NCBI GenBank assembly: GCA_965237375.1
Contig: CBDEFI010000006.1
Location: forward strand, 418,407-482,406
Direction of reading: 5' to 3'
Source of the DNA: Acidimicrobiales bacterium
Lineage (GTDB): Bacteria; Actinomycetota; Acidimicrobiia; Acidimicrobiales; CATQHL01
Length of the DNA stretch: 64,000 nt
Shown here: positions 30,893-57,610 of the stretch, piece by piece
Position numbering within the stretch: position 1 is the first letter of the stretch
Layout: every line of letters starts with the position of its first letter
The notes under the pieces: generated by a model
Told to the model about the DNA's origin: nothing
Seen by the model: only the letters and a program-made list of their open reading frames with translations
The model's database searches: none
Position numbers and translations under genes: made by a program

Positions 30893-31283
30893 AGGGCGCT
30901 ATCTCGTTGGAGATGGTGATCACGCAGTCATGACCCTCGGTCCGGGCTAAGTCCAGGTACGCGTTGATCTGATCGGCATCAAGCTTCGCGAGTCCCGTCT
31001 TGACTTCGACGAGCGCTTCAAATGTCGCCCGGTTACCAACGCTGACCCTTATGAGGCCGTCCGGCCGAAGGGTCTTGTCCCCAGCATCGTAGGAAGGCTC
31101 CACAAACGCCTCCACGCGAGCGGTCTTGGCGCGTGTGCAGCCCAACGGCGCGAGCAACGTCGCACTGAGTGGCCTGACAATGCTCAGAACGGCTAGCAGC
31201 GCCGAGGTGGCCCGCTTCTCCGCCTCCCGTTGTCCTGTGATACCCGACACCGGTATCAGTCGTGCGGCCTCAGGTTCGCTCAT
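30893..31283 (-). pseudogene. PD-(D/E)xK-like protein, N-terminal 130 aa, truncated by IS30
   Basis: MSEPEAARLIPVSGITGQREAEKRATSALLAVLSIV...RPDGLIRVSVGNRATFEALVEVKTGLAKLDADQINAYLDLARTEGHDCVITISNEIAP. The reading frame runs into the IS30 end at 30892. Confidence 0.55.
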
Positions 31284-41403: not shown

Positions 41404-41462
41404 GCGTGCCACGGGCGAGAGTCGACTCTCGTATCCGGAGATCACCTGCTAGCATTCCGGCG

Positions 41463-43265
41463 ATGGGCGTCGCCCGTATCTCCCGAATGATTGGCGAATG
41501 CCCATGCCCCGGTCGGCAGGCAGTGCTCGCCGCGTTCGCGCTGGTGGCTCTGCTGACGGCCTGGCCCTCCGGACCCGCCAGCGGCCAGACCGTCGAGGGC
41601 AGCGGCTCGACTCCCTCCTTCACCGCCGTGAGCGCCGGCAGCCTGCACACGTGTGCGCTGCAGATCGGCGGCGCCGTCGCCTGCTGGGGATATAACGAAC
41701 ACGGCCAGAGCGACGCCCCGTCGGGAATCTTCACCGCCGTCAGTGCGGGCGTCCTGCACTCCTGCGGTCTGCGCGCCGACGGCTCCATAGCCTGCTGGGG
41801 CGAGGACATCCGAGCCGAATCCACCCCGCCCGTCGGCACCTTCCGCGCCGTCAGCGCCAGCGACCTGCACACGTGCGCCATCCGCACCGACAACACCGTC
41901 AACTGCTGGGGCGACCCCACAAACGGCCGGACGAGCGCGCCGGGCGGCACCTTCACGACTGTCAGCGCCGGCGGAGCACACACGTGCGGCATCCGCACCG
42001 ACGGCACCGTCACCTGCTGGGGCGACAACGCCAACGGCCAGACCGATGTACCCACCGGTAGCTTCACCGCCGTCAGCGCGGGCAGCCGGCACACCTGCGG
42101 CCTCCATACCGACGGCACCGTCACCTGCTGGGGCGACAACGCCAACGGCCAGGCCACCCCTCCGACCGGTAGCTTCACCACTGTCAGTGCCGACTACCGG
42201 CACACCTGCGCGGTCAGCACCGACAACGCCATCACCTGCTGGGGCCGCAACACTTCCGGCCAGAGCGACGCCCCCTCGGGGGCCTTCATCAAGGTGTCCG
42301 CCGGCGGTTCGCACTCCTGCGCCGTAAGCACCTCCTACACGGTCACGTGCTGGGGCCACGATGGTCACGGCCAGACCAGCCTCGCCGCCGTGGGCGCCCC
42401 GGCGCCGGCCGCAGCAGCCAGCGTTCGAACCTTCACCGCCATCAGCGCCGGCGGTGCGCACACCTGCGCCATCGGCGCCGCGAACGTCGTCACTTGCTGG
42501 GGCGACAGCCGGTTCGAACAGTTCGTGACCCAGTCCCCCGCTCTCTCGACCGCGCCCAGCGGGGCTTTCACCGCCATCAGCGCCGGCGGTGCGTACACCT
42601 GCGCCATCGGCGCCGCGAACGTCGTCACCTGCTGGAGCCCAGGCGACGACAGGATCGACGCACCCTCGGGCACGTTCACGGCCATGAGCGCCGGCAGCAG
42701 GCACACCTGCGGCATCCGCACCAACAACACCGTCGCGTGCTGGGGCGACAATGGCAACGGCCAAGCCTCGCCGCCCACCGGCACCTTCACCGCCATCAGC
42801 GCGGGCAGCCTGTACACCTGCGGCATCCGCACCGCCGGCACGGTCACTTGCTGGGGCCGTGACGTTCTCGACAACATCGGCACGCCCGGCGACACCTTCA
42901 CCGCTGTCAGCGTCGGCTGGCTCCACGCCTGCGGCATCCGCACCGACGGCAGGGTCGACTGCTGGGGCCGCGACGACAACGGCCAGACCGACGCACCCTC
43001 CGGTACCTACACCGCCATCAGCGCCGGCAGCCGGCACACCTGCGCCATCCACACCAACGGCACCATCGCCTGCTGGGGCGACAACGGCTACGGCCAGATC
43101 GACACACCCTCCGGCACGTTCACCGCCATCAGCGCCGGCAACCTGCACTCCTGCGCCATCACCACCGACAGTGCCGCGTTCTGCTGGGGTGACGACCGAT
43201 TCAAACAGTCCAGCGTGCCGACGACGGTCTCTCCGGGACCAGCGCTGGACATCCCGGCGATCTGA
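41463..43265 (+). CDS. Secreted RCC1-repeat (beta-propeller) protein
   Basis: Signal peptide, then ~11-12 repeats of F(T/R)A(V/I)SAG..HTC(A/G)(I/L)..(D/N)(G/N).(V/I).CWG.(N/D)..GQ...P.G. Confidence 0.85.
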   Translation: MGVARISRMIGECPCPGRQAVLAAFALVALLTAWPSGPASGQTVEGSGSTPSFTAVSAGSLHTCALQIGGAVACWGYNEHGQSDAPSGIFTAVSAGVLHSCGLRADGSIACWGEDIRAESTPPVGTFRAVSASDLHTCAIRTDNTVNCWGDPTNGRTSAPGGTFTTVSAGGAHTCGIRTDGTVTCWGDNANGQTDVPTGSFTAVSAGSRHTCGLHTDGTVTCWGDNANGQATPPTGSFTTVSADYRHTCAVSTDNAITCWGRNTSGQSDAPSGAFIKVSAGGSHSCAVSTSYTVTCWGHDGHGQTSLAAVGAPAPAAAASVRTFTAISAGGAHTCAIGAANVVTCWGDSRFEQFVTQSPALSTAPSGAFTAISAGGAYTCAIGAANVVTCWSPGDDRIDAPSGTFTAMSAGSRHTCGIRTNNTVACWGDNGNGQASPPTGTFTAISAGSLYTCGIRTAGTVTCWGRDVLDNIGTPGDTFTAVSVGWLHACGIRTDGRVDCWGRDDNGQTDAPSGTYTAISAGSRHTCAIHTNGTIACWGDNGYGQIDTPSGTFTAISAGNLHSCAITTDSAAFCWGDDRFKQSSVPTTVSPGPALDIPAI

Positions 43266-43324: not shown

Positions 43325-43708
43325 GGGGCTGATCGGTTTCGACGTCGAGACCGGGAACCGTGCTACGCGACCGGAGTTGCTCAGACTCCAAAAACGGGGC
43401 ACCAAAGACACGGCAATGATGAACCCGTGCTCCTCGCCGCCTGATCACCTGATCGGACAGTGAGGTAACTGCGACCCCTACGGGGGCACGCGGGGCCCGT
43501 CCGCTGCAGCCTGGCAACAGAAGCAGGGGAGGACAGCAGGGAAAGACCGCTGACGGTGGGAAAGACCGCTGACATCGGAGAAAGATCCGACGGAGCCCTC
43601 ACGGGCAACCGACCCGGCGGTGAGCAACCCGCAAAGCTGTAACCGGGAATGGTCGTATCGGAGACGGCAACCGCTCGACGGACGGGGGTTCGATTCCCCC
43701 CAGCTCCA
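43325..43708 (+). ncRNA. ssrA: tmRNA (SsrA)
   Basis: The 5' GGGGCTGATCGGTTTCGAC pairs with the 3' ...GGACGGGGGTTCGATTCCCCCCAGCTCCA (tRNA-Ala-like acceptor and T arm). The tag ORF is GGC AAT GAT GAA CCC GTG CTC CTC GCC GCC TGA (43412-43444), giving GNDEPVLLAA. It lies downstream of smpB. Confidence 0.9.
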
Positions 43709-43806
43709 CTTTGGGCTCTTAGCGAGTTAGGGCTCGCTGAGTTGTCCAGTTATGCGTTGGCGCGCCGGTTCGGCGCTGGTTTGGGCTGTTTGCGCGCGTT
43801 GGGGGG

Positions 43807-45690
43807 CTAGTTGGTGGTGCCTTCGGCGTCGCTGGGAGCGGCCCGCGTGCTGGTTGTTGGTTTCCGGGCGCGGCGAGGCCAGCGGTGTTGATCCGCTGGC
43901 TGTGGGGGTGTCGGCGTGGGGCGGCTAGGGCGGCGCGCGGCCTGTGGCGGGCCTTGGTGCGGGGTGACGGTCAGGTTCGCCGCCGGAGTCTTGTGGTGTG
44001 TGCGGTGTTGTTGTCGGCGTGTGCGTGTCTGCGGCCTCGGTTTGGGCGCTGAGGTTGAGGTTGTAGATGACTGCTTGGGCGAGCGCTGCGATGGCGCGGG
44101 GAATTCTGCTGAGCGACCGGCACGTTCCGGCGAGGAGTGCTCCTTTGTGGCGTAGCCGGGAGTTGGTGTTTTCGATTTGGTTTCGTCTCCCGAAGCTGCT
44201 TCGCCACGCCGTTGTGCCGTAGGGGACGTTCTGGTAGTTGGCGAGTTGGCTGCTGTTGAGGGTGATGAGCCCGTCGCAGCAGTGTTCGGTGGTGACGCCG
44301 GCGAGGTAGGGCACGGGACCGCCGCCGCATCGTTGGCGAGGGTTGCGGGTACGGGCGTTGGTGTTGACGCGTCCGGCGCATTGGGGGCAGCGCATCTGGA
44401 TTGCGCCGTCGCGCAGGTGCTGGTGGGGCGAGTAGCGCCAGCGGCTGCGCTGGTCGTAGAAGTCGGTGCATTGTGGCTGGTCGGCCCTTCGGGTGGTGTG
44501 TGGAGCGCTTCGGGCACCCAGGAGGGCAGGAGGGTGCCGCAGTGGTCGATGACGGGTTGTTGGTGGCGGCCAGCGGTGACGGCTTTGGGGCGGGCGACTT
44601 CGGTGCTGCGATAGTCCATGACCACGTCGAGGCCGCGTTCGCGCAGGTGCCGCACGAAGTTGGTTCGTTTGAGGGTGTAGCCGAGATCGGCGACGACCTC
44701 TTGGAGGTTGGGTGCGTGGCGGGTCGTGTCTTCGATGGCTTCGCGGCCGACGGGTCCGGGGTTCGTGGAGGCGGCGACGAACGCCAACGCGCAGATGTAG
44801 GCGGGTGGGAGGTCTGTGAGCGTGAGTCGGGTCGGGTCGCCGCTCCAGTGCGCGCCGCGCACCGCCACGGCGACGTGGAAGTCGTAGCCGAGGCCGAGGC
44901 CGGCGGGGCGCTTGGAGGTCGCGGAGTGGTAGCCGGGCCGCGCGTCGGTATCGGCGCTGCGTATGAGGCGACCGTCGGGGCCGATCGTGCCGATGGCTCC
45001 GGAGCCGTCGGGGCGTAGCGGTTCGGGTTCGGGCAGGTCGGGGATCTGTCGGGCGGCGAGGCGGTGCTGCGCGACAGCGTCGGGGGTGAAGTCCCGGGTG
45101 ACGGCCCACGTCTCCACGAAGGTGCTGTCGAGCGCCACGGCGGTGATGGAGCGGCGTTGGTCGCGGGGGATGGTCGCGTCGAGGAGTGTGCGCGTGAGCC
45201 ACGCCAGGTCTCGTTTCTTCCCGCACGGCGATGTCCACCCGTCACGCACCGCTAGTTCCAAGCGGCGGAGCTGCTTTTGGGTCGTGTGGTAGGAGACGGG
45301 CCGTCGGGTGTGTTCGTCGCAGAGCCCGAGCGTGTAGGCGAGCGTGGCGTCGAAGCTGTTGATCACAGCGCAGATGTCGCTGCGCAGATAGTTCTTCTTC
45401 TCCTCGCCCGCCAACAGCACCGCCACGAGCAGCGCCTCGACATTCAGACGCGACTTCGGCCCGGGGTGCGCTCCGAGCCATCGTTGCAGCTCCTCGCCGA
45501 CCCCGGATCGCCGCACCACGTCCAGGTAGCGGTGTGCGCGGCGCGGGTCGGTGTACGTCGGTGTCGCAGTGGTGGCGCTCGGATGGTCCTCGGGGAGGCG
45601 GCGTGCCGCGTTCAGGAGGCGCCGCGCGTCGCCGTCGAGGCGCCCCTTGCGCTTCGCGTGTTCGCGTCGTCGATGCTCGGCCCGGTTCAC
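43807..45690 (-). pseudogene. Large DDE transposase-like protein (IS4/IS1182-like catalytic signatures), frameshifted near 44480-44520
   Basis: GTG at 45690 overlaps the upstream stop (GTGA). Motifs: ALDSTFVETWA, GYDFHVAV, VVADLGYT. After the frame change: RCPQCAGRV...FGRRNQIENTNSRLRHKG...AIAALAQAVIYNLNL. Confidence 0.6.
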
Positions 45691-46610
45691 GCTCCGAGCC
45701 CCCCAACGGCCGCGTCCTCCTCTGACCTCGCTGCGGCGATGTGGCCGGCGAGCGCATCTAGCGTGTTCGCCGACAGCGGTCCCGCGATGCGCCTCAGCGC
45801 GCCGAGCGGCGTGCCGGCGGTGAGGTGGGCGCACAACCAGGTGGCACGGGCCCGCCGCAGCGACAAACCGTCACGGTCCCTGTCGCCGAGGCTTTCCAGC
45901 AGCTTGTGCACGGCGTTGCGGCCGTGGCCGTTCACCAGCGGCCCACAGGATGCGCCCCGCTGGAGGCGCACTGCCAAGGCGGTGTAGGACGAGCGAACGG
46001 GCACGAGCCGTGCGTGCGGCCCCCGGACACGTACCGCTATGCGCTCCCCGGCGAGCGCGACGAGATCCTCACCCTGTGCGTCGGCGAGTTCGGGACCGCG
46101 CAGGCCCGCACCGAGCGCGCCGCACACCACCCAGCCCCGGCGAGTGTCGCTGCGCCGGACACCGAGGCTCACCGCCAACCGCCACGTGGCCTCCTCGCCG
46201 CACGAGTACGGCTCTGCGGCGCCCTGCCGGCCGAACCGTTGCGTCGCCTCGGCCCAGCCCGCCGGGTTCGCGGCCCGACCGACGACCCGCAAACACCACC
46301 GCGTGTCGCTGCGCCAGGTGGCTGCCCGGTCCGCGCAGGCGACCATCGTGTAGTACTCCACGTTCGCCGGCGCCAGCACGGTCTCCGCGTCGGTGGTGCC
46401 CAAGGACCGTGACGCCCACAGTGCGATCCCCGCGGTGGCGCGCACGAAACGGCGCGCCATGACAGCCGTCGCCGGCTCCGCGGCGACGACCCAGCCGTGC
46501 ACCAGCGGCAAGAGAACCTCCACGGCCTCGACATCCCCCAAAGGCCACCCGATCGGGCACCAGTCCTCGATGGCCCGAGCCGCCTCGACGCCGACAGTGG
46601 GGCTCATCAC
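45687..46610 (-). CDS. Hypothetical protein, weakly tyrosine-recombinase-like C-terminus
   Basis: 307 aa: ...LSLRRARATWLCAHLTAGTPLGALRRIAGPLSANTLDAL. It is translationally coupled to the DDE-like gene. I could not confirm a catalytic Tyr. Confidence 0.4.
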   Translation of the reverse strand: MMSPTVGVEAARAIEDWCPIGWPLGDVEAVEVLLPLVHGWVVAAEPATAVMARRFVRATAGIALWASRSLGTTDAETVLAPANVEYYTMVACADRAATWRSDTRWCLRVVGRAANPAGWAEATQRFGRQGAAEPYSCGEEATWRLAVSLGVRRSDTRRGWVVCGALGAGLRGPELADAQGEDLVALAGERIAVRVRGPHARLVPVRSSYTALAVRLQRGASCGPLVNGHGRNAVHKLLESLGDRDRDGLSLRRARATWLCAHLTAGTPLGALRRIAGPLSANTLDALAGHIAAARSEEDAAVGGLGA

Positions 46611-47106
46611 GATGCCCTAGCGGTACCGTTGGGACGGGGTTCGGAATTTGTGCGAAGCGCGCTCTGGGCGCTAGTGTTCCGCATAGTTGTTGGAGCCGCA
46701 GCACCCCTCCGTCGGCCAAGACATTCGGGGTGTTGCGGCTCTTTCCCTTCCTTCTGTTCCTAGCGCTCTCGCGCCCTTCTAGATCCGTACAACACAGCGC
46801 GTCCCGCTCCGGCCGCCAGGACCACGCCGGCAACACGCGACACGACCGAAACGTCGCCTAGCTCGATAAACGCCCCCTCACCGTGAGGCATCAAGCACCC
46901 TCCAACCCCCTCGTCGCCGATTTTGCGCATTGTCCAACTACTTAGACAGTTGTACCCAGCAAGGGCCGCCGGTGGGTGCGGTGGGGCCCGTTATCGAACC
47001 GTTCTGTTACCCGCCCACAACACTCACGTCGAGCGCCACTGCACCCGCCATGGCACCTGGCACGCGGTCGGGCACGCGCACCCGCCACGCACTACCGTCA
47101 CCGCCA

Positions 47107-47454
47107 ATGGGAGACCCGGGAGAACACGTCCCGGTGCCCCGCGACTACCTCGTCGGCGGGGCGCAATGGCCCGACGGCCTACTACGAGCCGTCGCGCCAC
47201 CCGAAGCACGCCTCCTAAAAGCAATCGCCAGCAGGCTCAAACAAGCCGTCGGCGACAAGTCGCTACGTGACGTGGCCAACGAATGCGGCGTCGCCCCACA
47301 AACCGTGCACAACATCCTCGCAGGCACAACATGGGCACACGTACTCAGCATCGCCCGCCTCGAACGAGGCCTCAACATCGGACTCTGGGGCCAAGAACAC
47401 CGAAAGAAACCCACGCACTCCGGCCGACCCACAACAACGCGGCGTACTCGGTAA
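47107..47454 (+). CDS. XRE-family HTH protein (start uncertain; ORF opens at 46930)
   Basis: LKQAVGDKSLRDVANECGVAPQTVHNILAGTTWAHVLSIARLERGLNIGLWGQEH. Confidence 0.6.
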   Translation: MGDPGEHVPVPRDYLVGGAQWPDGLLRAVAPPEARLLKAIASRLKQAVGDKSLRDVANECGVAPQTVHNILAGTTWAHVLSIARLERGLNIGLWGQEHRKKPTHSGRPTTTRRTR

Positions 47455-47596
47455 ATCGCCCGGCACGGACGCGGGACATCGCTCTAGCGTCATGCTTTGG
47501 GCTCGCTACTGCTACCGCGGTTGCCGTACTGGGCGAAGTGTGGGTCACTACCCCTCCAGAACGTGGAACGCTCTATGGGCGCGGGAGAACGTGCAG

Positions 47597-47830
47597 ATCA
47601 GCGTTTGTGGGCTCTGCGCGTTTGATGGGGCTAGTTGGTGGTGCCTTCGGCGTCGCTGGGAGCGGTTCGCGTGCTGGTCACTGGTTTCCGGGCGCTGCGA
47701 GGCCAGCGGCGTTGGTCCGGTGGCTGTGGGGGGGCACATCACCACCCTTGCCCTCATCGAGCAGGGGCTCAACGTCTGCCTCTGGGGCCACGAGCACCGG
47801 GAGAGGCCGCAGCGGCGCCACCGCTAGATA
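47597..47830. repeat. Miniature duplicate joining both ends of the 43.77-47.45 kb element
   Basis: 47597-47735 is ~85% identical to 43765-43910 (ctagttggtggtgccttcggcgtcgctgggagcgg...). 47740-47827 re-encodes the XRE C-terminus (LALIEQGLNVCLWGHEHRE). Confidence 0.75.
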
Positions 47831-47934
47831 ATCGGCAGATCAACTACCACGCTTAGGATCGATCGCTGAGACTGACCGCTATCCGCGCGGCTGCTCAGGT
47901 CCTCGCACCCCGGAGTGCCCCATAGGGGACTCTG

Positions 47935-49329
47935 TCAGCGAGACGGGCCAGCAGTAGGCGCCTCCGTGGGCCAATACTTGCGACTCTGGAGATACTGCGT
48001 CGCCTCGGGTTGTTCGGTGAATTCGAGCAGGGCGCCGAGCTTCTCCGCGAGCACCACGCGAACCTCGATAGGTGTGGCAAAGAAGAACTCACGGCGCGTG
48101 TTCACGCGGTTCACTCGCGCCTCTGCGAATGCGTCATGCAACTCCTGTTCCACAACAACGGCGTCGTCTGCGAAGAACAGTGCGTGCACATCGAATGGGA
48201 AGGGCACCGACGCATCACCAAGTTCCCGCACACGATCCATGGGCTCGAGCCGCCGAGTCATGCCGATCTTCACCATCCGCTTGCCGAAAGAGCCGGGGTT
48301 GCTGATCACGTAGACGTAGCCGGCGCGGATATTCGCCACGCGGTAGTCGTTCTGCGCGATCGCAGTGTCGACATCCAGCAGGCGCCGCTCCATCTCAGCA
48401 ATAGCTTCCTCGTCGGCATTGACACGAAGCGCTTCTAGGGCTGCTAGGTAGTGGGAGCGCTCCTTGTCGAGCCGTTCTCGCTCAGCGGCAAGTTCCTGCT
48501 CCGCACGCCTCTCCTCACGAAGCCGCTCGCGTTCTTCTCGCGCGGCTTCTTTCTCCTCCTGCTTCTTCATGAGATGGTCCGATGTCAGCTCGAGTTCCTC
48601 GAATCGGAGTTCGTGGTAGCGGGGGTTCACGCGCATCTCCATCATTGCCCCGAGTTTGGCGATGGCTTGCACAGCTCTGTCGAGGCGCTTCTTGGCCGTG
48701 ACGATGTTCCCAGCCCGCAGCGCACGGACGCAGTTGTCGGCTTCGGCGTTATAGGCCCGCAGCATCAGTTTCGAGAGGTCGGCGGTCATCTTGCGGCCCT
48801 TGGCCAGCGAGTTGTTGTAGGTGAACATGTCGGAAGCGAGGATCGCGTCCCCGGTCTTCACCATCTCCTTGATTCTCAAATTGAGGGCCACGAGCCTTGA
48901 TCGGTACTGCTCGGCATTCTCGAGGGGGTGGTGGTAGTTGTAGATGCCGACTTCCTGGAGAACGCGCTCGTCGTCAAGGTCGACGAGGTCGTCACCGCCT
49001 TGGGCGGCGCGATCTCGGAGCGACTCCACCTCGGCTTGTAGCAGGCGTACTTCCTCAGCGAGCACCTCGGCGTCGTGCTGGTCGTTGCCAGAGTCCGATG
49101 CGCGTAGAGTCGCCGCCGGCGGGGTAGGCGAGGCGAGGCTGGGAGGCGAATCGGTGGCACCCTGCGGATCTGTGGGCGTAGCAGCAGCGTCGGCGTCAGG
49201 CGTGATCCAGAGTTCCCACCCGTCTGGTGGTGGAGGCCATGACGGATCGGGCTTCCAACCGCTCGGCGGGATCCACCCGTCTGGCGGTTTCGGCCAGTTG
49301 GGGGGAGGGTTGAACACCCCGTCGCCCAT
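47935..49329 (-). CDS. DUF4041-like coiled-coil + T5orf172/GIY-YIG-like C-terminal domain protein (defence-island type)
   Basis: ATG at 49329. The N-terminus has PP.GW repeats (PPNWPKPPDGWIPPSGWKPDPSWPPPPDGWELW). Middle: LQEVGIYNYHHPLENAEQY...MTADLSKLMLRAYNAEADN. C-terminus: GYVYVISNPGSFGKRMVKIGMTRRLEPMDRVRELGDASVPFPFDVHALFF..DAVVVEQELHDAF...RVN..REFF. Confidence 0.7.
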   Translation of the reverse strand: MGDGVFNPPPNWPKPPDGWIPPSGWKPDPSWPPPPDGWELWITPDADAAATPTDPQGATDSPPSLASPTPPAATLRASDSGNDQHDAEVLAEEVRLLQAEVESLRDRAAQGGDDLVDLDDERVLQEVGIYNYHHPLENAEQYRSRLVALNLRIKEMVKTGDAILASDMFTYNNSLAKGRKMTADLSKLMLRAYNAEADNCVRALRAGNIVTAKKRLDRAVQAIAKLGAMMEMRVNPRYHELRFEELELTSDHLMKKQEEKEAAREERERLREERRAEQELAAERERLDKERSHYLAALEALRVNADEEAIAEMERRLLDVDTAIAQNDYRVANIRAGYVYVISNPGSFGKRMVKIGMTRRLEPMDRVRELGDASVPFPFDVHALFFADDAVVVEQELHDAFAEARVNRVNTRREFFFATPIEVRVVLAEKLGALLEFTEQPEATQYLQSRKYWPTEAPTAGPSR

Positions 49330-49336
49330 CTCCGAG

Positions 49337-50608
49337 TTAGCCCCGGACGCCCTTGGCCAGGTCAATCGCCACCAACCCGAACGGGTTCTTCGACACGGCG
49401 GCCTTTAGGTGCGCAAGGGTCGCGGCCGGCACGATGTTCGAGAGGTCGAAGGCCTCGAATGTCGCTCGGTCCGACGCGACCGCAACGAACGGGATGTCAG
49501 TCATGTGACCCGTTCCAGGGTCGATCGTCTGGGTCGCGACCGTTAGGGAGATCGTCTGAATGCGACCCGCCCGGTCGGCCTCGAATATCTCATGCAGCGT
49601 CCGGACGGCGACCTGGGCAACCGCGTGGGCGTAACGTTCCCTCTGTTCCTTCTGGGACTGAGCGGTTTCCGTGATTTCGTCGCGTGCCTTGATGTACTTG
49701 TATTGGCGGATGCTCGGCATTGATGAGGGCGCGGGTACGGCGACCTTCAAGGTCAACTCGCCCTGCGCCGAGTCGAAGGCGAACTCGTGCGAGACAGGGA
49801 ACGAGTCGGGGTACACGGAGCTTCCCAAGACGATCGACACATACTCTTGGACGGCGTCCTCGACGCCGTACCCGAGGTTCGCGATGAGTTCGTCAAGGGC
49901 GCTATTCGACTCAGCAACCTCGGCCTCGCGCTGCTGGCACTCCGCTTCGTAGGTTGCCTTCGCGGCCTCGAGTTGCTGCAGGCGGAGATCCTCCGCAGCC
50001 TCATAAGCGCGATCCTGTTCCTCTTGCCGCGAGGGGATACTTGCGATCTCCGCCTCCCACGCCCGGTTCGCCTCGTCGTGGCCGGCCTGCGCTTGGGCGA
50101 GCAACGCGGCATATCTCTTCTTGGCCCCGAGCGCCAGAGAGAACTTCTTCGGTTCGCCGGGCGGTGCGACGAACTCGGGGCGAAGCGGTGGCTCGATGGG
50201 GTCAGGCCGCGGAGTGGCAGTGGCCAACTGCCCCGGCTCGAACCGTGGATGCTCGACAACCCGGCGCAACGTTTCGAGATCGACGTAGTCGTCGACCGCG
50301 AGCGTGTCGGCGAGAATGCTGTCGATCTCGCTGTAGGTGCCGGAAAGGGCCGCGTTCCGGGCAGATGCCTCGGCCTCCATCGCCTCGATGTGGAGACGTT
50401 TGGCTTCCTGTTCGGCCTTCTTCTGCTCAGCAGCGCGAGCCCTCTCCGCTTGGACCCTGGCCTTCTCCGCCTGCCGCGCGGCTTGCTCAGCTCTTCGCTG
50501 AGCAGCAGCCTGGTCGCGCGCTGTCTGCCGCTGCTCCTGCTCCCGGCGTCTCGCATCCTGTTGCATCTGGCGATTGATCTCCGCCAGCAGTCCCCGATGT
50601 CGAGCCAT
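49337..50608 (-). CDS. Hypothetical protein: N-terminal Q/R/A/E-rich coiled coil + conserved C-terminal globular domain
   Basis: 423 aa. It ends 7 nt before the DUF4041-type gene (TAACTCGGAGATG). The C-domain is ...YVSIVLGSSVYPDSFPVSHEFAFDSAQGELTLKVAVPAPSSMPSIRQYKYIKARDEI...VAVRTLHEIFEADRAGRIQTISLTV. Confidence 0.6.
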   Translation of the reverse strand: MARHRGLLAEINRQMQQDARRREQEQRQTARDQAAAQRRAEQAARQAEKARVQAERARAAEQKKAEQEAKRLHIEAMEAEASARNAALSGTYSEIDSILADTLAVDDYVDLETLRRVVEHPRFEPGQLATATPRPDPIEPPLRPEFVAPPGEPKKFSLALGAKKRYAALLAQAQAGHDEANRAWEAEIASIPSRQEEQDRAYEAAEDLRLQQLEAAKATYEAECQQREAEVAESNSALDELIANLGYGVEDAVQEYVSIVLGSSVYPDSFPVSHEFAFDSAQGELTLKVAVPAPSSMPSIRQYKYIKARDEITETAQSQKEQRERYAHAVAQVAVRTLHEIFEADRAGRIQTISLTVATQTIDPGTGHMTDIPFVAVASDRATFEAFDLSNIVPAATLAHLKAAVSKNPFGLVAIDLAKGVRG

Positions 50609-51789
50609 AACCCGACCCCTTTCCTCTCAGGCAACTTGCTGCTCGCCAGTACTGGCGGGCGAGCACCGGGCGACCTTACTCTGGGTATATTGAGACCCGC
50701 TAGGGCTTAGCGAGGGGCGCAGGTGGCGCGAGGCGGCTGACCTGCACGCTACGTCTAACGAGGGACCTCTCGCACCCAGCCTCAGCAGCCGCTGCGTCAC
50801 GGTTCGCGGAAGCCCGCCCAATCTGTCGGCGCCCCGCTACTGGACAGCGAAGGAAGCTACGTGGTCTTCGGATGAGTGATCGCGAGACGCGATGTTCTCA
50901 AGTACATGCTCGAACGCCAAAGCAACGACCCCGGGAGGCCCTCCCATGCGTACTCACGCCCCTGCTCGTCGCGGCCCCCGCCGTGTCGCCAAACCGCCGT
51001 CTACGTCAATCGGCTGGGGGGTCAGGCTTTCGCAAGCGCTGATCGCCGCCGCCGCGGGCGCCGCTTATGGCCGCGCCGCGGAGGCCGGGTTCGGCGACCC
51101 GGCGCTGCAGGGGCTCGTGGCGCTTCTTGCTGCCGCCAGCGTGGTGGTGGTTCTCGGCCAGGAGCATCTGCGCGAAGCGCTGGATCGCGGAGTCGGTACC
51201 GCGGAGCGGAAGGGTTATGGCATGCGGGCCTTGTTGCTCACCATCGTCCCGCCCCTGGCCATAGCGGGCACGTTGATCTCTCTCGCGAGCTACGAGCATG
51301 GGTGGCCGTTGGGCCGCCTAGAGGATCACACGTTGCAGCGAGGTGTGGTGTTCGGCGCGCTTGTCGCCGTGCTGGTGTGGCTGCTGGCTGCTGCCGCCAG
51401 CACCCCGCTGTTGGCCCTCGCCGCCCGCAAGCGCGCCGGCGCGTCGTCGGTGTCTTGGCCGCCGGTGCCTGCCGATCTAGCTGGCTTGCCGTGGCCGGAC
51501 ACCTTCCAGGCATCGCCCGAGGATCCGTACGAGAACGACGCCTTCGAGCGCGAGGACGATGTGCGCCGCTACTGCGAACTGCTGGTGGCTGGCCGTGCGC
51601 CGGCGGTATGGGCACTATCGGGCCCTTGGGGGTCTGGGAAGTCAGCGTTTGCCCGGATGGCAGCGGCGGAGTGCGAGCGCCAAGACGCCGTCAGCAGGTG
51701 CATCGAGGTGTCCGCCCCGGCGGGCCGACTAGGGGGTGCACCGTTGTTCGATCTCGCGGCGGCGCTGGCGTACGGTCTGGCCCCACTAG

Positions 51790-52819
51790 ATGAGTAGTTC
51801 CAAGGGGTGCGGGGTGCGGGGGGTCCGCTGCTGGGTGGTTGAGGGTGTCCAAAATCTGGGGGTAACAATCCCTGATCTTGGAGGATCTCGGCATGAACCC
51901 GGACTTGGACACCCTCGTGACTGCACTGTATGTGAGGATCGATGATTTGTTGATGGCGCACCCCGAGTGGGCGCCGCGGCGGCCCGCGGTGGGGTTCGTC
52001 CCGAAGCTCACCGACGCGGAGTTGGTGACCTTGGCGGTGCTGCAAGCCTTGTTGGGGTTCGACTCTGAGGCCCGCTTCGTGCGCTACGCCAAAGCGCACC
52101 TGCGGGCGTGGTTCCGGTATCTGCCCCAGCGCCCCGGCTATAACAAGCGTCTGCGCCGCAGCGGCGAACTGCTCCCCCACGTGCTCGCCGCCCTGGCGCG
52201 GGACTGCCCGGCCTGGCACGACGACGTCTGGGTCGTGGACTCCACACCGGTGGAGTGCGGGCGCAGCCGCGAGACCCAAAAACGCTCCGACCTCGCCGGA
52301 TGGGCCGCCTACGGCTACAGCGCCTCGCACGCACGGTACTTCTGGGGGCTGCGCCTGCACCTGCTCGCCACCCCCGCCGGACTGCCTATCGCCTACGCCC
52401 TCGCCGGCGCCAAAGCCGACGAACGCGACATCTGCTTGGACATGATCGCCCACGCCGGCGTGGCCCGGCGGGGCCAGACCCTCATCGCCGACAAGGGCTA
52501 CCGCAGCGCCGCCTTCGAAGCCCAACTCAACGACGCAGGCATCACCTTGATCCGCCCCGCCACCAAATCAGAGCCGCCCCGGCCCGGCCAGCGGTTCCTG
52601 CGCCCGCTGCGCCAGATCATCGAATCCATCAACCAGACCCTCAAAGCCCAACTCGGCCTCGAACGCCACGGCGGCCGCACCCGCCCCGGCGTGGCCGCGC
52701 GCATCCTGCAACGCCTCCTCGCCCTCACCGCCGCCATCTGGCACAACCAAACCACCCAACAACCAGGACCCGCCCGATCCCTCATCGCCTACGACCACTG
52801 ACCCCTTGGAACTACTCAT
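51790..52819 (+). mobile_element. IS982-family element (1030 bp) with CTAG target duplication
   Basis: Perfect 18-bp IRs ATGAGTAGTTCCAAGGGG / CCCCTTGGAACTACTCAT. CTAG lies at 51786-51789 and 52820-52823. Confidence 0.9.
51878..52801 (+). CDS. IS982-family transposase
   Basis: 307 aa: VVDSTPVECG...GYSASHARYFWGLRLHLL...LIADKGYRS...RQIIESINQTLKAQLGLERHGGRT. Confidence 0.88.
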   Translation: MEDLGMNPDLDTLVTALYVRIDDLLMAHPEWAPRRPAVGFVPKLTDAELVTLAVLQALLGFDSEARFVRYAKAHLRAWFRYLPQRPGYNKRLRRSGELLPHVLAALARDCPAWHDDVWVVDSTPVECGRSRETQKRSDLAGWAAYGYSASHARYFWGLRLHLLATPAGLPIAYALAGAKADERDICLDMIAHAGVARRGQTLIADKGYRSAAFEAQLNDAGITLIRPATKSEPPRPGQRFLRPLRQIIESINQTLKAQLGLERHGGRTRPGVAARILQRLLALTAAIWHNQTTQQPGPARSLIAYDH

Positions 52820-53961
52820 CTAGGTGCAGGGGAGCGCCGCGGCGGGATCGAGCGGATGTTCGACATGGCGCGCTCCTACGCGGAACCTGTCCGCTTGGCG
52901 CAAGAGCTGCGTGCCGGCGATGACCCGCGTGGAACCCTCAATGAGTTTGCTGGGGTCGTGGAGGAACTGGTGGGAGAGGCACCGGGCCGGGTGATCCTGT
53001 GGATCGACGACCTTGACCGCTGCCCGCCGGATTACGCGTTGGAGATGCTGCACGCGGTGCGCGCCGTCACTGCGTGCCGCAATTTGTCGACAGTGCTCGT
53101 GGTGAACCACGATGCGCTCGTCGCCGCAGCTGGCCACAGGTGTGGGTTGGGTGCCGAGGCGGGGTCCTACCTCGACCGCTTCATTGATTTCAGGATTGAC
53201 GTGCCGCCGTTGGACCGCGGCGATGTTGGGCGTGGGGGGCTGCGCGAACGGTGGATGGTCCAGCGCGCTGAAACCGTCGGCCTGGCCCAGACGATGAAGG
53301 ACGCCGCCCCCCTCAGTATGCTGACCGGCGCGGCATGGACCGAGGCGCTGTCCTTGCGGGATCTGGAACAGCTTGTGTACCGCGCCTCGGTGGTGCTGCC
53401 AGGCATCCCGAGCCACCTGCCCCCCTTGCTCGGCGAGATGGACCCCCCGACCGACCCCTCTGCTGCCGCCGACCGGGAGGCCATGATCCTCGCCGTGTGT
53501 GCACACGTCCTGCTCAACGTCTGGGACACAGAAACACGGGAGCAGGTTCTCGAACTGGTCACCAGGGAGACGCCACCCCACAAGGGCGAGGTGGGCAACC
53601 TGATCGGGCCCACGCCCTTCATCCCCTGCGTAGGGGCCGGACCCGCGTTTGTCGAGGCTCTAGATCCAGCGCTGGTCGCGCTACGGGCCTGCCACCACGA
53701 GCATCACACCGGGCGTGTGCCCGACCTGGCGATCATCAGAGGATGGGCCAGCGAGATCACGCCACCGCGCGGCGACGTCTAGCCCGGCTAAAGGGCCGTT
53801 GATCGTCACCTGGCCGCCCCACCCTCACCCTCGGCGGGCGGGTAGCCGGACTGCTCGCCGGTTCGGGCGCCGGAGCGGCTATCCGGGCTCTTCGGAGCCT
53901 TCGGCATGGCCGTCGCGTCGCACGGGATCCAAACCGAGAACTGTGTGAGAAACGACGCCGA

Positions 53962-55024
53962 CGGCCAGTTCTAGTGGTCACTGCACGGTGAGGGCATGAT
54001 ACAGCTCTGCGGGGCTGTGGTAGTTGAGGCTGCGTCGGCGCTGGTTGTTGATGATGTGTGCTGCGTGTTCTGCTTGTGCGGGGGTGATGAGGCGGAGGTC
54101 GGTGCCGCGGGGGAACCACCAGCGGCATTGGCGGTTGAGGTTCTCGATCTGGCCGCGTTGCCACGGCGAGTGCGGGTCGCAGAACCACACGTCGAGGTTG
54201 TAGTGGTCGGCGAGGCGGCGCCAGTTGGCCCATTCGGGGCCTTGGTCGAAGGTGAGGCTGCGGCGCAGGTGGGCGGGGATACCGTCGAGGCCTTCGATGA
54301 GGCCGGCGAGGGTCGCGTCGGCGGTGTAGCCGTCGGGCATGGTGACCGGGATGGAGAACCTGGTGGTGCGCTCGGTGAGCCAGATCATGGAGGACCGGTT
54401 GTTGGCGCCGATGATCTGGTCTGCTTCCCAGTGGCCGGCCTCGCTGCGGTCGTTCACCTGCACGGGGCGCAGGGAGATGTTCGCCACGCCGGGGCGCGAC
54501 CTGGGGTTGCGTCTGTGGCGGCAGCGTCGTCGCCGCCGGCGGCTGCGCAGGCACTGCCGGGGTTCCACGTCGAGAACCCCGGCGTAGAGGGCCTGGTAGA
54601 TGGTCTCCACGCACGGCCGGGCGGCCACGCCCGCCGCGGCCAGGTCCGCCCAGATCGCCTCGGGGGAGCGCCCCAGGCGCAACTCGGCGACGATCCGGTC
54701 CCGCAACGGGCCCGGAACCTCCAAGCGGCGCCGCCGCGGCCGACAGCGTGCCCGCTCGGCGCGCCGCTGCGCCATCGCCGGGCGGTAACGGCCACGACCG
54801 CCGCCCGCGGCGACCTCACGGGCGACCGTCGACCGATGCCGGCCGAGCGACCGGGCGATCGCCGCCCAACTCGCCGCCGGATCCTCAATCAGCGCCCGAG
54901 AAATCTCCTCGCGCTCGTGCAACGCCAGCGGTGCGCCTGGCATGCTGGTACCTCCATCGGTCGGTGCTTGTATTGGCACCGGTCATCATGACCGGCACCG
55001 TGCACCGACCGATGGAACTGGCCG
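53962..55024 (-). mobile_element. IS30-family element, copy 2
   Basis: It has the same termini as 29830-30892 and roughly 90% nucleotide identity by eye. Confidence 0.9.
53978..54979 (-). CDS. IS30-family transposase
   Basis: 333 aa, a paralog of the 29846-30847 product. Confidence 0.9.
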   Translation of the reverse strand: MPIQAPTDGGTSMPGAPLALHEREEISRALIEDPAASWAAIARSLGRHRSTVAREVAAGGGRGRYRPAMAQRRAERARCRPRRRRLEVPGPLRDRIVAELRLGRSPEAIWADLAAAGVAARPCVETIYQALYAGVLDVEPRQCLRSRRRRRRCRHRRNPRSRPGVANISLRPVQVNDRSEAGHWEADQIIGANNRSSMIWLTERTTRFSIPVTMPDGYTADATLAGLIEGLDGIPAHLRRSLTFDQGPEWANWRRLADHYNLDVWFCDPHSPWQRGQIENLNRQCRWWFPRGTDLRLITPAQAEHAAHIINNQRRRSLNYHSPAELYHALTVQ

Positions 55025-55108
55025 ACCGGCCCGCGCTCCTTGACCCGGGAGAGAGATCGCGGTCCTTGGGCGGTGGTACCCTCTACCTCACTTGGTAAGG
55101 AATTCAGG

Positions 55109-56182
55109 ATGATCGTAAAGCCATACAAGCAAACTAATGTGCACCAAGACCCCCGTCAGCTAGCAGGCGCGGCCGCCGAGGAGCAAATGGCGCACTACTT
55201 GCACCGAGGTTTCAATGAAGATCAGGGCGTTCACGTACTACACGATGTGAGGCTCGAGGATCGCGCCCAACCGGAGCAGGATGGCTCGACCGGAGTGTGC
55301 CAGGTCGATCATCTGCTTGTGCATCGCTGGGGGCTGTTCATCATCGAGAGCAAATCGGTGACCGAGGAAGTTCGGGTCCGGTCCGACGACTCGGGCGGAG
55401 ATGAGTGGAGCCGCGTGTACCGAGGCAAGGAGAAGGGGATGCCCTCTCCAATTCGGCAGGCGCAGCGCCAATCGGAGTTTCTGCGGGCGTTTCTTCAACG
55501 ACACCGGGAGGAAATGCTCGGGAGACAACCTGTCGGGCTCCGCACTATTTCCAAGCTCGTAGTGGGAACTGATCAGCGTGGGTTCAAGTCGGCGCCGATC
55601 CAACTGGTAATCGCCGTGTCCGACAAGGGCATGATCAAACGGCGTGGTGGTTGGGAAGAGCCCCGCGAACCGTTGCGGGTGTTCGTGACCAAGGCGGATC
55701 TGGTCACCGACAAGATCCGCCAGGAGCTTGAGCGGCATAGAAAAGGCCCGGACGTGGTGAATGCTGAACCTGCTCGCGACTACGGCATGTGGAGCATGAA
55801 AGCGCAGGAAGTTGAGTTGGTGGCTGAGTACCTTGCAGAGCGGCATGTGGATCGCTCGGACGCTTCGCCAGCCCGATCCAAGGGGACTGCCCCTAACCGC
55901 AACCGCAGGTCATCCCCGAACAAGGCCGACGGCGCCGGACACTCGGCGAGAGCGACCTGCAGGCATTGCGGGTCGGAAGACCTCACCGCGCGTTGGGGCA
56001 AATACGGGTACTACTGGCGGTGCGAAATGTGTGAGCAGAATACGGCGATGCCCGTGATTTGCTCTGCATGCGGAACCGAGGGGGTACGGGGCAAAGGGGT
56101 GCGGGTTCGCAAGGCCAAGGCAACGTATTCCCGCGAGTGCGAAGCATGCGGGTATGCCGAAACAATATGGACCGAGGACTGA
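55109..56182 (+). CDS. NERD-domain protein with C-terminal Zn-ribbon cluster (topoisomerase-type fingers)
   Basis: ATG at 55109. Motifs: AEEQMAHYLHRGF...VLHDVRLED...CQVDHLLVHRWGLFIIESKSV. C-terminus: CRHCGSEDL...YWRCEMCEQ...CSACG...CEACG. GC is lower than its surroundings. Confidence 0.7.
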   Translation: MIVKPYKQTNVHQDPRQLAGAAAEEQMAHYLHRGFNEDQGVHVLHDVRLEDRAQPEQDGSTGVCQVDHLLVHRWGLFIIESKSVTEEVRVRSDDSGGDEWSRVYRGKEKGMPSPIRQAQRQSEFLRAFLQRHREEMLGRQPVGLRTISKLVVGTDQRGFKSAPIQLVIAVSDKGMIKRRGGWEEPREPLRVFVTKADLVTDKIRQELERHRKGPDVVNAEPARDYGMWSMKAQEVELVAEYLAERHVDRSDASPARSKGTAPNRNRRSSPNKADGAGHSARATCRHCGSEDLTARWGKYGYYWRCEMCEQNTAMPVICSACGTEGVRGKGVRVRKAKATYSRECEACGYAETIWTED

Positions 56183-56268
56183 ACGCCGCCGGACCCTGCG
56201 CGCCTTTCCGCTTGGACCCTACCCCGCTCCGACTGGCGGACCGCTTGCGGGGCAGTCCGGTACCTACG

Positions 56269-57180
56269 ATGGCCAACATGCCCAACAACGCCTCGCGGCA
56301 TGACGAGGAGGCCGCGGCGGCGGTGATCGCTCGGCTGGTCGATGTCGCCAACACGCGGCGACCGGACCCCGGCAAGGCCAAGGCACCCGACTGGCGCTTG
56401 AAGTTGGCTAGCGGTTCGGTTGTTTACGTAGAGGTGACCACGAATGTCGACGGCGAGACCCGCGCGTTCCATACGGCAGTCACCCAGCGAGACGGTGCTG
56501 CTCGCGAATGGCCCGATGATCGCTTGGCGTACTGGTGGGAAGTATTGCTTGCCGACCACGACCCGGCGTCGAGCCGCGGTGTTCGGCGTGTCAAGGATGT
56601 GGTTCCGGAACTGGGTGGGATACTGGCCGATGTCGAGTCCGCGGGCGGTTCCCCCGCTGAGATGGCAGCACGCGCAGCGGAGGCACTGAGTAGGTCGCCC
56701 CTGTTCACATCACCGCTCTTCGCTGACCCGCGACGATTCAGCCCCTACCCACCAGAATGGCCAGACGACAGTTCATGGCATGCGCAGAATGTCAGACTCG
56801 TGGGAGAACCCGACTTCGTCGGCCCCGGCCCGGGCGGGATCCTCACCATAGGCCTCACCGCGGACGCCAGCGCGGGCCAGGTAGCGCTCGTGACGGACGT
56901 ACGACGCTGCATCGCAGCAAAGAGGGCGTCGGACCAGTTCGCTGGCCACGAAGGGGCGCGTTGGTTGGCGGTGATGCTCAGCGGACTTGCTGCGGACCAA
57001 CTATGCCGCAATGGTGAACGACGCCCGTTGCCACGGTTCCCGCGTCTCGATATCACGTTCGACTACTTCGACGAGGTGTGGGCAATCACCGAGGGGAGGG
57101 CCGGGTACGTGGTTCTGCGCCTCACACAGGGAGGCACAGATCAGCGCCACATCAAGTGCTCCCAATTGTCGTCGCCCTGA
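56269..57180 (+). CDS. Hypothetical protein
   Basis: 303 aa from the ATG at 56269 (MANMPNNASRHDEEAAAAVIARL...). I recognised no family. It lies 87 nt downstream of the NERD gene on the same strand. Confidence 0.45.
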   Translation: MANMPNNASRHDEEAAAAVIARLVDVANTRRPDPGKAKAPDWRLKLASGSVVYVEVTTNVDGETRAFHTAVTQRDGAAREWPDDRLAYWWEVLLADHDPASSRGVRRVKDVVPELGGILADVESAGGSPAEMAARAAEALSRSPLFTSPLFADPRRFSPYPPEWPDDSSWHAQNVRLVGEPDFVGPGPGGILTIGLTADASAGQVALVTDVRRCIAAKRASDQFAGHEGARWLAVMLSGLAADQLCRNGERRPLPRFPRLDITFDYFDEVWAITEGRAGYVVLRLTQGGTDQRHIKCSQLSSP

Positions 57181-57371
57181 CCCAGCGCCTGTCGTGCTGG
57201 GTCAACTCATGTCAGCTGTGTCTCTCGCGGCTGATCTGCCGCCCGCGCGCTCCGAAGTCAAATGCCTCCCGGTCGTACTCGCGAGAGCGCTGCCCGTCGG
57301 GCACTGCGCCAAGAGCGAGAGTCCAGCAGCCGAGGAGCGTGCGCATATGTGGGCGGGTTGAGCCCGGACTC

Positions 57372-57610
57372 AAATGTGGAGACCCCCCTCTTCAAAATGT
57401 GGCGCGCTCCAACGGGTCCTGGGAATCGGCAGGTCAGGTGTGGTGGCTAACACCCCACTTTGGACGCTCATGAGGCCCCATGTGCACCCATGAGCCGCCA
57501 TGACGCCCCAGAACTCCGAGGTCACAGCGCCGCGTGCAGTTGACACTGATTCGCCCGTTCTTGCTGGGTGTCAGCTATCACGCCATCCCGCGTGGGAATA
57601 GACGTGGGAA
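57372..57610 (+). promoter_or_regulatory. Island-junction module
   Basis: AAATGTGG(A/C)G lies at 57372-57381 and 57395-57404. Degenerate core: ctaacaccccactttgg. Conserved arm: acgctcatgaggccccatg...gttgacactgattcgc...tcagctatcacgccatcccgc. GTGGGAA lies at 57592-57598 and 57604-57610. Confidence 0.55.

Follow-up and report, generated by a model that had tools for sequence, protein, structure and literature searches.

We analysed a 64,000-nucleotide stretch of an Acidimicrobiales genome (contig CBDEFI010000006.1, positions 418,407 to 482,406; hereafter the window, with position 1 at its first letter) and found that the gene for transfer-messenger RNA (tmRNA) is followed directly by an element at 43713-57456 that we consider rather likely to be a composite, probably immobile copy of a family of DDE transposons homing to the 3' ends of tRNA and tmRNA genes. 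Its module consists of a DDE transposase gene (B), a gene for a protein with a tyrosine-recombinase fold (A) and a divergent XRE-like regulator gene (Table 1).

Table 1. Features of the tmRNA-linked element and its surroundings, in window coordinates
Feature	Position	Strand	Basis
tmRNA gene ssrA, proposed insertion target	43325..43708	+	Rfam RF00023 and sequence reading
Junction pentamer ACTTT, copy 1 (discriminator + 4 nt)	43708..43712	.	sequence comparison
Left (tRNA-proximal) end	43713..43924	+	same architecture at the same distance in ~20 loci
Gene B, DDE transposase, 588 aa after repair	43925..45690	-	homologues, profile, fold, triad
Gene A, 307 aa	46610..45687	-	tyrosine-recombinase fold, without the canonical catalytic Tyr
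Helix-turn-helix (XRE-like) gene	46930(47107)..47454	+	weak HTH_3 and PHROG regulator matches
Putative relic junction, CTTT (4 of 5 pentamer bases) + GGGCTC (start of left inverted repeat)	47495..47504	+	decamer
Putative relic of older copy, left-end non-coding DNA + XRE tail	47603..47830	+	repeat comparison
PD-Lambda-1-type defence protein (DUF4041 + T5orf172/GIY-YIG-like)	47935..49365	-	PADLOC PDLC03976, 358 bits; Pfam
Type IV methyl-directed restriction enzyme-like protein	49337..50608	-	PADLOC mREase_IV, 133 bits
IS5-like insertion sequence (transposase 51878-52801)	51784..52824	+	PF01609, 60 bits
KAP-family NTPase fragment (PDC-S20/PifA-like), between the two insertion sequences	52856..53782	+	profile/PADLOC matches
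IS30-like insertion sequence (transposase 53978-54979; HTH_38 + rve)	53961..55025	-	profile match
NERD-domain protein	55040..56182	+	also cargo of the L001 copy
Right (distal) end module X, ~85 nt	57372..57456	+	same orientation in >15 loci
Junction pentamer ACTTT, copy 2	57457..57461	.	sequence comparison

Element ends and junctions

A genome scan with a 13-sequence alignment of B returned 36 loci, mostly in Acidimicrobiia metagenome-assembled genomes, among them several sponge-associated lineages, and one in Streptomyces; individual loci are cited here by their L numbers. By comparison with such relatives the element measures 13,744 bp, because the pentamer ACTTT flanks it on both sides and inverted ends lie at 43713 and 57456. 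The left end opens with the terminal inverted repeat (TIR) GGGCTCTTAGCGAG (43713-43726) and carries two direct 12-nt sites, TTAGCGAGTTAG (43719-43730) and TTGTCCAGTTAT (43742-43753). The right-end module, which we call X, comprises two direct AAATGTGG(A/C)G sites at 57372 and 57395, a core that reads CAGGTCAGGTGTGGTGGCTAAC in the window (57430-57451) and the terminal TIR GTGGCTAACACCCC (57443-57456); across copies the direct sites can be written AAATGTGGAG, the core CAGGTCAGGNGTGGTGGCTAAC and the terminus NNCCC. Read as its reverse complement, the right end GGGGTGTTAGCCAC (57456-57443) is an inverted copy of the left-end site, with 10 of 14 positions matching in the window. Inverted repeats in the same register are present in L034 (CCTATGGTCCAT / CCTGTGGGCCAC) and in L014 (GGGCAGTCTGCGA / GGGCAGTTAGCCA). 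L001, L002 and L003 all match the window over 57372-57459, and module X is kept in constant orientation in more than 15 loci, including relatives that are only 37% identical in B. A small RNA or tRNA mimic was also considered for module X, for which Rfam gave no family match.

The exact flanking repeat extends beyond the pentamer to the 9-nt CCACTTTGG (43706-43714 and 57455-57463), the only such repeat, and three of its nine nucleotides lie within the tmRNA body. A 9-bp, Tn5-like duplication of CCACTTTGG was the first candidate considered; the arrays of L035 and L016 described below fit a 5-nt junction better, although any length from 5 to 9 nt is possible.

The tmRNA gene as proposed insertion target

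The tmRNA gene matched Rfam RF00023 over the full model at 43325-43711 (69.3 bits); an ARAGORN run on the window did not detect it at 43325, so that the Rfam search was needed. Its T-arm is CGGGGGTTCGATTCCCCC, the 3' strand of the acceptor stem (CAGCTCC) extends to 43707, and the next base, 43708, is the discriminator A. CCA is not encoded, CTT following the discriminator instead, and the tag frame, read by eye, ends in NDEPVLLAA and a stop. When the window was searched for a second tmRNA 3' end further downstream, of the kind expected from an integrase attachment (att) site, none was found; the one other match with three mismatches lies upstream on the other strand (21262).

Close relatives with the element differ in the three bases at the CCA position of the tmRNA gene, which read CTT in the window, CTC in L002 and CCA in L003. 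This variation exceeds the expectation from flanking divergence and suggests that insertion here happened independently or more than once. Directly 3' of the tmRNA, the first left-end site and its neighbouring sequence form a 6-bp hairpin (43720-43739 in the window, 9950-9975 in L001/L002), and its stem shows a compensatory difference between lineages (AGCGAG..CTCGCT versus GGCGAG..CTCGCC). This hairpin may serve the RNA gene as a terminator or processing signal, or it may be bound by a protein.

Related copies at other RNA genes

The order XRE (reverse), A, B was found in 24 of the 36 loci and in L001, L002 and the window. In these same loci gene B ends, at its 3' side, 190-520 bp away from an RNA gene (tRNA or tmRNA) encoded on the other strand, and the orientation is constant. 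At least 12 RNA genes serve as targets: tRNA-Gly-ccc, Ser-tga, Ser-gct, Leu-cag, Leu-caa, Leu-gag, Lys-ttt, Val-tac, Val-gac, Cys-gca, Pro-cgg and tmRNA. The geometry of the left end runs from the T-arm through the 7-nt acceptor strand, the discriminator and three nucleotides (CCA or a variant) into the 7-nt NGGGNTN, a 12-nt site (TTRGCSANTTA), a spacer of ~11 nt and a repeat of the 12-nt site. From the GTTC of the T-loop to the first 12-nt site the distance is 31 nt in nearly every one of the ~20 loci read. No tRNA or tmRNA gene was found within 10 kb in L017, L018, L027, L028 and L030; L018 and L028 carry tandem copies, and their RNA gene may lie further away.

Several genomes harbour more than one copy, each at a different tRNA gene, and in trees of both A and B the clades follow target identity. 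Within arrays, the pentamer at successive junctions is repeated (ACCCT three times in L035, ACCAT twice in L016, ACCAG twice in L034), which fits insertion into one site several times in succession, each time duplicating 5 bp. An informative exception to this link between clade and target is the pair L001 and L002, which come from the same sample and carry elements that are 92-94% identical yet sit at tRNA-Gly(ccc) and at tmRNA, respectively. These two targets have an 18-nt T-arm in common, ACGGGGGTTCGATTCCCC, and differ in their acceptor strands, which points to the T-arm as the recognised sequence.

We also scanned metagenomes with the tmRNA 3' end as the pattern. Most tmRNA genes with the same 3' end continue into ordinary sequence, a plain terminator in the case of the syntenic L073, and about 8 of 80 tmRNA loci show the left-end architecture. 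The latter include four further lineages (L082/L101, L106, L078/L108 and L109), of which L106 also encodes homologues of A and B (32% and 27% identical). The Streptomyces clavuligerus plasmid pSCL3 carries a homologous trio with recognisable left-end architecture, annotated by PGAP as two hypothetical proteins and a transcriptional regulator.

Two-ended non-autonomous derivatives occur in other genomes (L034, L035, L033, L016 at 1.5 kb, and L001 197-1632). On the reverse strand of L034, a unit of ~390 bp resembling a miniature inverted-repeat transposable element, with no credible open reading frame (ORF), lies between two right-end modules. L035 and L033, two genomes with arrays at tRNA-Leu(cag), contain a 2.0-kb unit with a single membrane-protein gene.

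Gene B encodes a Tn5-like DDE transposase

The A and B ORFs of the window themselves gave no match in Pfam, NCBIfam or PHROGs, so that both proteins were identified only through intact homologues and structure prediction. Gene B starts with a GTG at 45690 that overlaps the TGA of gene A (GTGA) and stops at 43925-43927. Compared with three relatives, its only insertion or deletion is one missing G in a run of G at ~44486 (GAAGG-GCC versus GAAGGGGCC in L003), and after repair the protein has 588 residues, as do its intact homologues P0001 and P0002, to which it is 83% identical. As the frameshift falls in a homopolymer it could be an assembly error. The window protein also has the substitutions G112S and Y500F at positions that are invariant or conserved in 25 of 27 sequences, and these could not be explained in that way.

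P0001 scored 26.6 bits against PF01609 (gathering cut-off 23), and 14 of the 27 members of the B family matched this profile at E <= 0.01. D188, D335 and E507 are invariant in 27 sequences and present in the window protein, and the consensus contains the Y-x2-R-x3-E-x6-K signature (Y500, R503, K514). The AlphaFold model of P0001 has a mean predicted local distance difference test score (pLDDT) of 86, and Foldseek returned Tn5 transposase structures (1muh, then 1mus and 1mm8) as the best solved matches, with E 3e-4 to 1e-3, probability 1.0, ~560 aligned columns and TM scores of 0.32-0.40. On this profile and model evidence, B is classed as a Tn5-fold DDE transposase of the PF01609 superfamily. 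NCBIfam assigns it to no named insertion sequence (IS) family: two of five homologues gave 48 and 29 bits with the IS1182 model (NF033551; cut-off 270) and the other three gave no match.

B further carries a Zn-like insert (CPQCAGR / CC) and a C-terminal RAPP that sits after a non-conserved tail of low model confidence. R-A/G/D-P-P is found at the extreme C-terminus, at or a few residues from the stop, in 17 of the 27 sequences, and exact RAPP in 12, including the window (43925-43939). RAPP and RGPP are known ribosome-arrest motifs and belong to the most avoided tetrapeptides in bacterial proteomes (PMC10951233, PMC12992588). At the motif in B translation may be arrested, so that the transposase is tethered or limited at ~200 bp from the left end of its own element.

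Gene A encodes a recombinase-fold protein

A and B are translationally coupled through the GTGA overlap. The structure model of A (pLDDT 88.6) matched the tyrosine recombinases XerA (5hxy), Cre, XerH and Tn1549 Int across both domains, with E 1e-6 to 1e-4 over 290-340 columns, and a profile search aligned the segment GAGLR...RLVPIR with the Arg-I/beta-hairpin segment of XerA. We placed the catalytic positions from the XerA alignment and from the spacing to Arg-II (R255), those of His-III and Tyr by spacing and not by structural superposition. In the column aligned to Arg-I, only 15 of the 34 sequences have Arg; 30 have Pro at the His-III position and 31 have Leu at that of Tyr. Because Arg-I is variable and the His-III and nucleophile positions are occupied by Pro and Leu, A is most likely a protein of the tyrosine-recombinase fold that has lost catalysis, as judged from model and alignment. 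Tyr135 and R255/T257/W258 are invariant. The window protein did not match Phage_integrase (PF00589), and among its 34 homologues two did so at E 0.014 or worse, none reaching the threshold. The family is large, with 2,744 cluster representatives at E <= 1e-3 and 1,918 at E <= 1e-10, and has neither a Pfam nor an NCBIfam model.

An earlier note on this DNA, made from its letters and ORF translations, had described a translationally coupled pair made up of a protein with a weak tyrosine-recombinase-like tail and a ~620-aa DDE-like protein broken by a single frameshift. The coupling at 45690, the 1-nt deletion and the recombinase likeness, now extended to the whole fold, agree with the present results, as does the DDE assignment; the length of B has to be corrected to 588 aa. 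Of the hidden Markov model searches that it advised for both proteins, the one with PF01609 succeeded in intact B homologues and the one with Phage_integrase stayed below threshold for A.

The putative divergent regulator

The XRE gene of the earlier note is likewise present, ending at 47454, and is a candidate XRE-like regulator gene, with a match to HTH_3 that is weak (E 0.0026, 18 bits, cut-off 23). Its start is probably the ATG at 47107, giving a protein of ~115 aa, because the homologues in L001 and pSCL3 have 106-107 aa. The gene was found at most related loci. The region between A and XRE (46930-46960 in the window) contains TTGTCCAACTA, similar to the second left-end site TTGTCCAGTTA, and a 115-bp piece of the same region is duplicated near the right end in L001 (1823-1936). 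This motif may be an operator that the element ends have as well.

Proposed mechanism

From the anatomy of the element, its association with RNA genes at a fixed distance and in one orientation, its inverted repeats and recurring pentamers, and the folds of its proteins, we infer a mechanism in which B, with its Tn5-like fold and invariant D-D-E triad, would be the catalytic enzyme acting on imperfect inverted ends (GGGNTN-TTAGCSA). Insertion would proceed by a short staggered cut, most simply of 5 bp, over tRNA positions 73-77 (discriminator, CCA and one further nucleotide), leaving the RNA gene intact and duplicating the pentamer. A would be a recombinase-derived DNA-binding protein without a nucleophile and the sequence-specific partner of B, most likely selecting the target by reading the T-arm of one particular RNA gene and setting both orientation and distance, or alternatively an architectural subunit that binds the ends. 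The divergent XRE protein would repress the A-B operon. Repeated insertion at the same site would push older copies outward, giving tandem arrays whose inner copies decay. It is tempting to speculate further that these elements form an unrecognised family in which a dead tyrosine recombinase was recruited as the target selector of a Tn5-like transposase, insertion at the CCA end provides a safe harbour, RAPP may tether or throttle B, and stacking of copies builds defence islands; we regard this wider proposal as possible, short of probable.

Several points weigh against homing by a DDE transposon. The support for it is drawn from assembled sequence and predicted structure, and the part of A as target selector is one that we infer entirely. 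A short direct repeat between inverted protein-binding sites would also be expected from the core site of a tyrosine recombinase, and A, given its invariant Tyr135 and R255/T257/W258, possibly has a non-canonical active site. The length of the repeat could be anything from 5 to 9 nt, as GG follows on both sides in the window and in L034, and the pentamers are not always equal (ACTCA/ACTAA in L002, ACCAA/ACGCC in L003). At the internal junctions of L001 the pentamer is of the tmRNA type and not that of tRNA-Gly, which requires transposition of a whole array as an additional assumption. In L014, an array at tRNA-Val-tac, the ends pair as L_a-X_a and L_b-X_b despite an order of L_a...X_b followed by L_b...X_a, and the outer direct repeat is 11-15 nt instead of 5, for which simple tandem insertion offers no explanation. 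No empty site from a close relative was found, the metagenome scan having yielded only distant tmRNA genes (~70-75% identical) and generic empty sites. Finally, the newer of the two copies that we propose for the window has no right end before 47495, so that the two-copy history of the window is a reconstruction.

The alternative that survives best, and which we consider unlikely, is an integrase-type island in which A is an unusual but active recombinase that joins an attP site (right end, 5 nt, left end) to the tRNA 3' end, with B as a passenger or accessory. A indeed has the full two-domain fold with its invariant Tyr135; integrases classically act at this location, in this orientation and with tandem accretion at tRNA and tmRNA genes, a short identical spacer between inverted binding sites resembles a core site, and the imperfect successive junctions of L002 and L003 resemble the behaviour of coupling sequences. 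However, the replaced Tyr and His-III positions, the variable Arg-I and the failure of every A member to reach the Phage_integrase threshold speak against an active recombinase, and B, coupled to A at nearly every locus, keeps its D-D-E triad invariant. The att repeats of integrases are ~15-40 nt long and lie within the RNA gene, and the usual recombinase spacer is 6-8 nt, whereas the repeat found here has only 5-9 nt and falls outside the body of the mature RNA, and the spacer is 5 nt.

The partial copy downstream of the regulator

A second left-end sequence follows the XRE gene. Positions 43779-43908 and 47603-47732 are 85% identical over 130 nt (blastn: 117 nt, 89.7%, E 9e-39), and 47333-47407 and 47730-47804 are 71% identical. 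The decamer CTTTGGGCTC occurs at 43709-43718 and 47495-47504; 0.09 matches are expected by chance, and none of 100 shuffles contained two. It is followed by ~100 nt of diverged sequence before the left-end similarity resumes, and the left-end DNA passes without interruption into the final ~35 codons of an XRE gene (47730-47830), with genes B and A and most of XRE missing. No right-end module was found upstream of 47495 or at 47830, the only one 3' of the tmRNA being that at 57372-57456, and right ends abut an older left end in L001 (twice), L002, L003, L016, L026, L028, L033 and L035. From these two observations we reconstruct 47495-47830 as what remains of the left end of an older insertion in tandem, which would have retained its right end along with the defence cargo; in the newer copy the module would have been kept and its own right end lost.

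The earlier note had instead proposed a 3.8-kb autonomous element (43709-47494) in tandem with an internally deleted mini-element, a model that now appears quite improbable. Its observations of the repeated left portion and XRE 3' end hold, as does the recurrence of the decamer, one base further on than it had placed it, and its reading of the decamer as a second boundary, which joins four junction nucleotides to the first six of the left end. Duplicated left-end DNA with an XRE tail is what that model predicts, and relatives do contain both minimal units with A and B only (L014, ~2.7 kb) and true miniatures (L034, ~390 bp). Against it stand the lack of a right-end module or inverted repeat upstream of 47495 and at 47830, so that the supposed mini-element is a left end fused to an XRE tail, and the position of the sole right end, with its matching ACTTT, which makes the element 13.7 kb long. 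Moreover, the similarity between the window and L001 and L002 breaks off within XRE, at 47411, and the right ends of these two lie kilobases beyond, and the XRE tail is never an element end in relatives. Two further claims were mistaken: the 3' end of the DDE gene lies outside the repeated left portion, as a stop at 43807 belongs to the wrong frame, and terminal inverted repeats, which the note could not find, are present as the imperfect pair GGGCTCTTAGCGAG / GGGGTGTTAGCCAC.

Vertical inheritance of A, B and XRE as an immobile chromosomal cluster with local duplications can practically be dismissed: the same arrangement does stand beside ssrA in the related L002 and L003, but the module lies beside at least 12 RNA genes with several copies per genome, has conserved ends with target-specific junction repeats, is missing from syntenic relatives, and extends to Streptomyces and the plasmid pSCL3.

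Comparison with known mobile elements

Literature searches found no description of this transposon family, which is apparently undescribed. In behaviour, as distinct from membership, it resembles Tn7 and Tn7-like elements, among them the type V-K CRISPR-associated transposons. In both cases the DDE enzyme is accompanied by a dedicated partner with a gene of its own, insertion is confined to one orientation and one spacing 3' of a conserved gene that stays intact, 5 bp are duplicated, the ends are asymmetric and contain multiple subterminal binding sites, and the cargo is rich in defence genes. Type V-K CRISPR-associated transposons home downstream of tRNA genes. In contrast, the enzyme here has a fold of the Tn5/IS4-IS1182 type and its partner that of a tyrosine recombinase. 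Among the larger ORFs from 43.7 to 57.5 kb that were scanned with Pfam, no TnsA, TnsB (rve), TnsC or TniQ/TnsD was recognised, the only rve match being the IS30-like transposase; an ATPase and a guide RNA were likewise not found. With IS4/IS5/IS1182-type elements it has the DDE triad, the Y-R-E-K signature, the predicted Tn5-like fold, TIRs and a short duplication in common; it differs from them by an obligate 300-aa partner gene and a regulator, kilobases of cargo, strict target and orientation specificity, and the Zn-like insert and RAPP of B.

Islands linked to tRNA and tmRNA genes are normally ascribed to tyrosine or serine integrases. The present element has in common with them, and with tycheposons, the RNA-gene 3' ends, the lineage-specific choice of target and the tandem accretion with partial relics. 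Tycheposons (Hackl et al., bioRxiv 10.1101/2020.12.28.424599) and the classical islands integrated at tRNA and tmRNA genes (Williams 2002, as cited by these authors) are cargo elements located at the 3' ends of specific tRNA genes and of the tmRNA gene; they rely on active tyrosine recombinases, and their att sites of ~40 nt reach into the RNA gene. In contrast to both, the recombinase-like protein here has no nucleophile, the DDE enzyme is always present and the 5-9-nt repeat begins at the discriminator. Large cargo elements moved by a DDE enzyme in place of an integrase are represented by TnGBS, ICE6013 and the integrative and conjugative elements (ICEs) of Mycoplasma, as covered in two reviews (PMC4701971, PMC5704250). 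These target sites upstream of promoters or AT-rich sites, use other transposase families and have no recombinase-fold partner.

If it is true that a DDE family homes to RNA-gene 3' ends, it would constitute a separate route of island formation that is invisible to island finders based on integrases. Two proteins and short ends that specify one orientation at a programmable, non-disruptive site would be of interest to genome engineers, and the reuse of a recombinase fold without its nucleophile and a transposase with an arrest motif each pose a testable mechanistic question. The A family carries no annotation, and B is 'hypothetical' even in a finished Streptomyces plasmid.

Cargo and neighbouring genes

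The window copy is probably inactive and immobile, as read from its sequence; its marks of decay are the frameshift in B and the two substitutions at highly conserved positions. Between the partial copy and the right end lie the defence-related genes and insertion sequences of Table 1. The IS5-like element has two copies in L003. A second IS30-like copy, 90% identical, is located elsewhere in the window at 29829-30893, and L002 702-1401 matches both. On the 5' side of the tmRNA, the gene at 41406-43265 encodes a 619-aa protein of ~37-aa RCC1-like repeats (...CWG.N..GQ...), is the source of many internal DNA repeats and is kept in L002, between smpB and ssrA.

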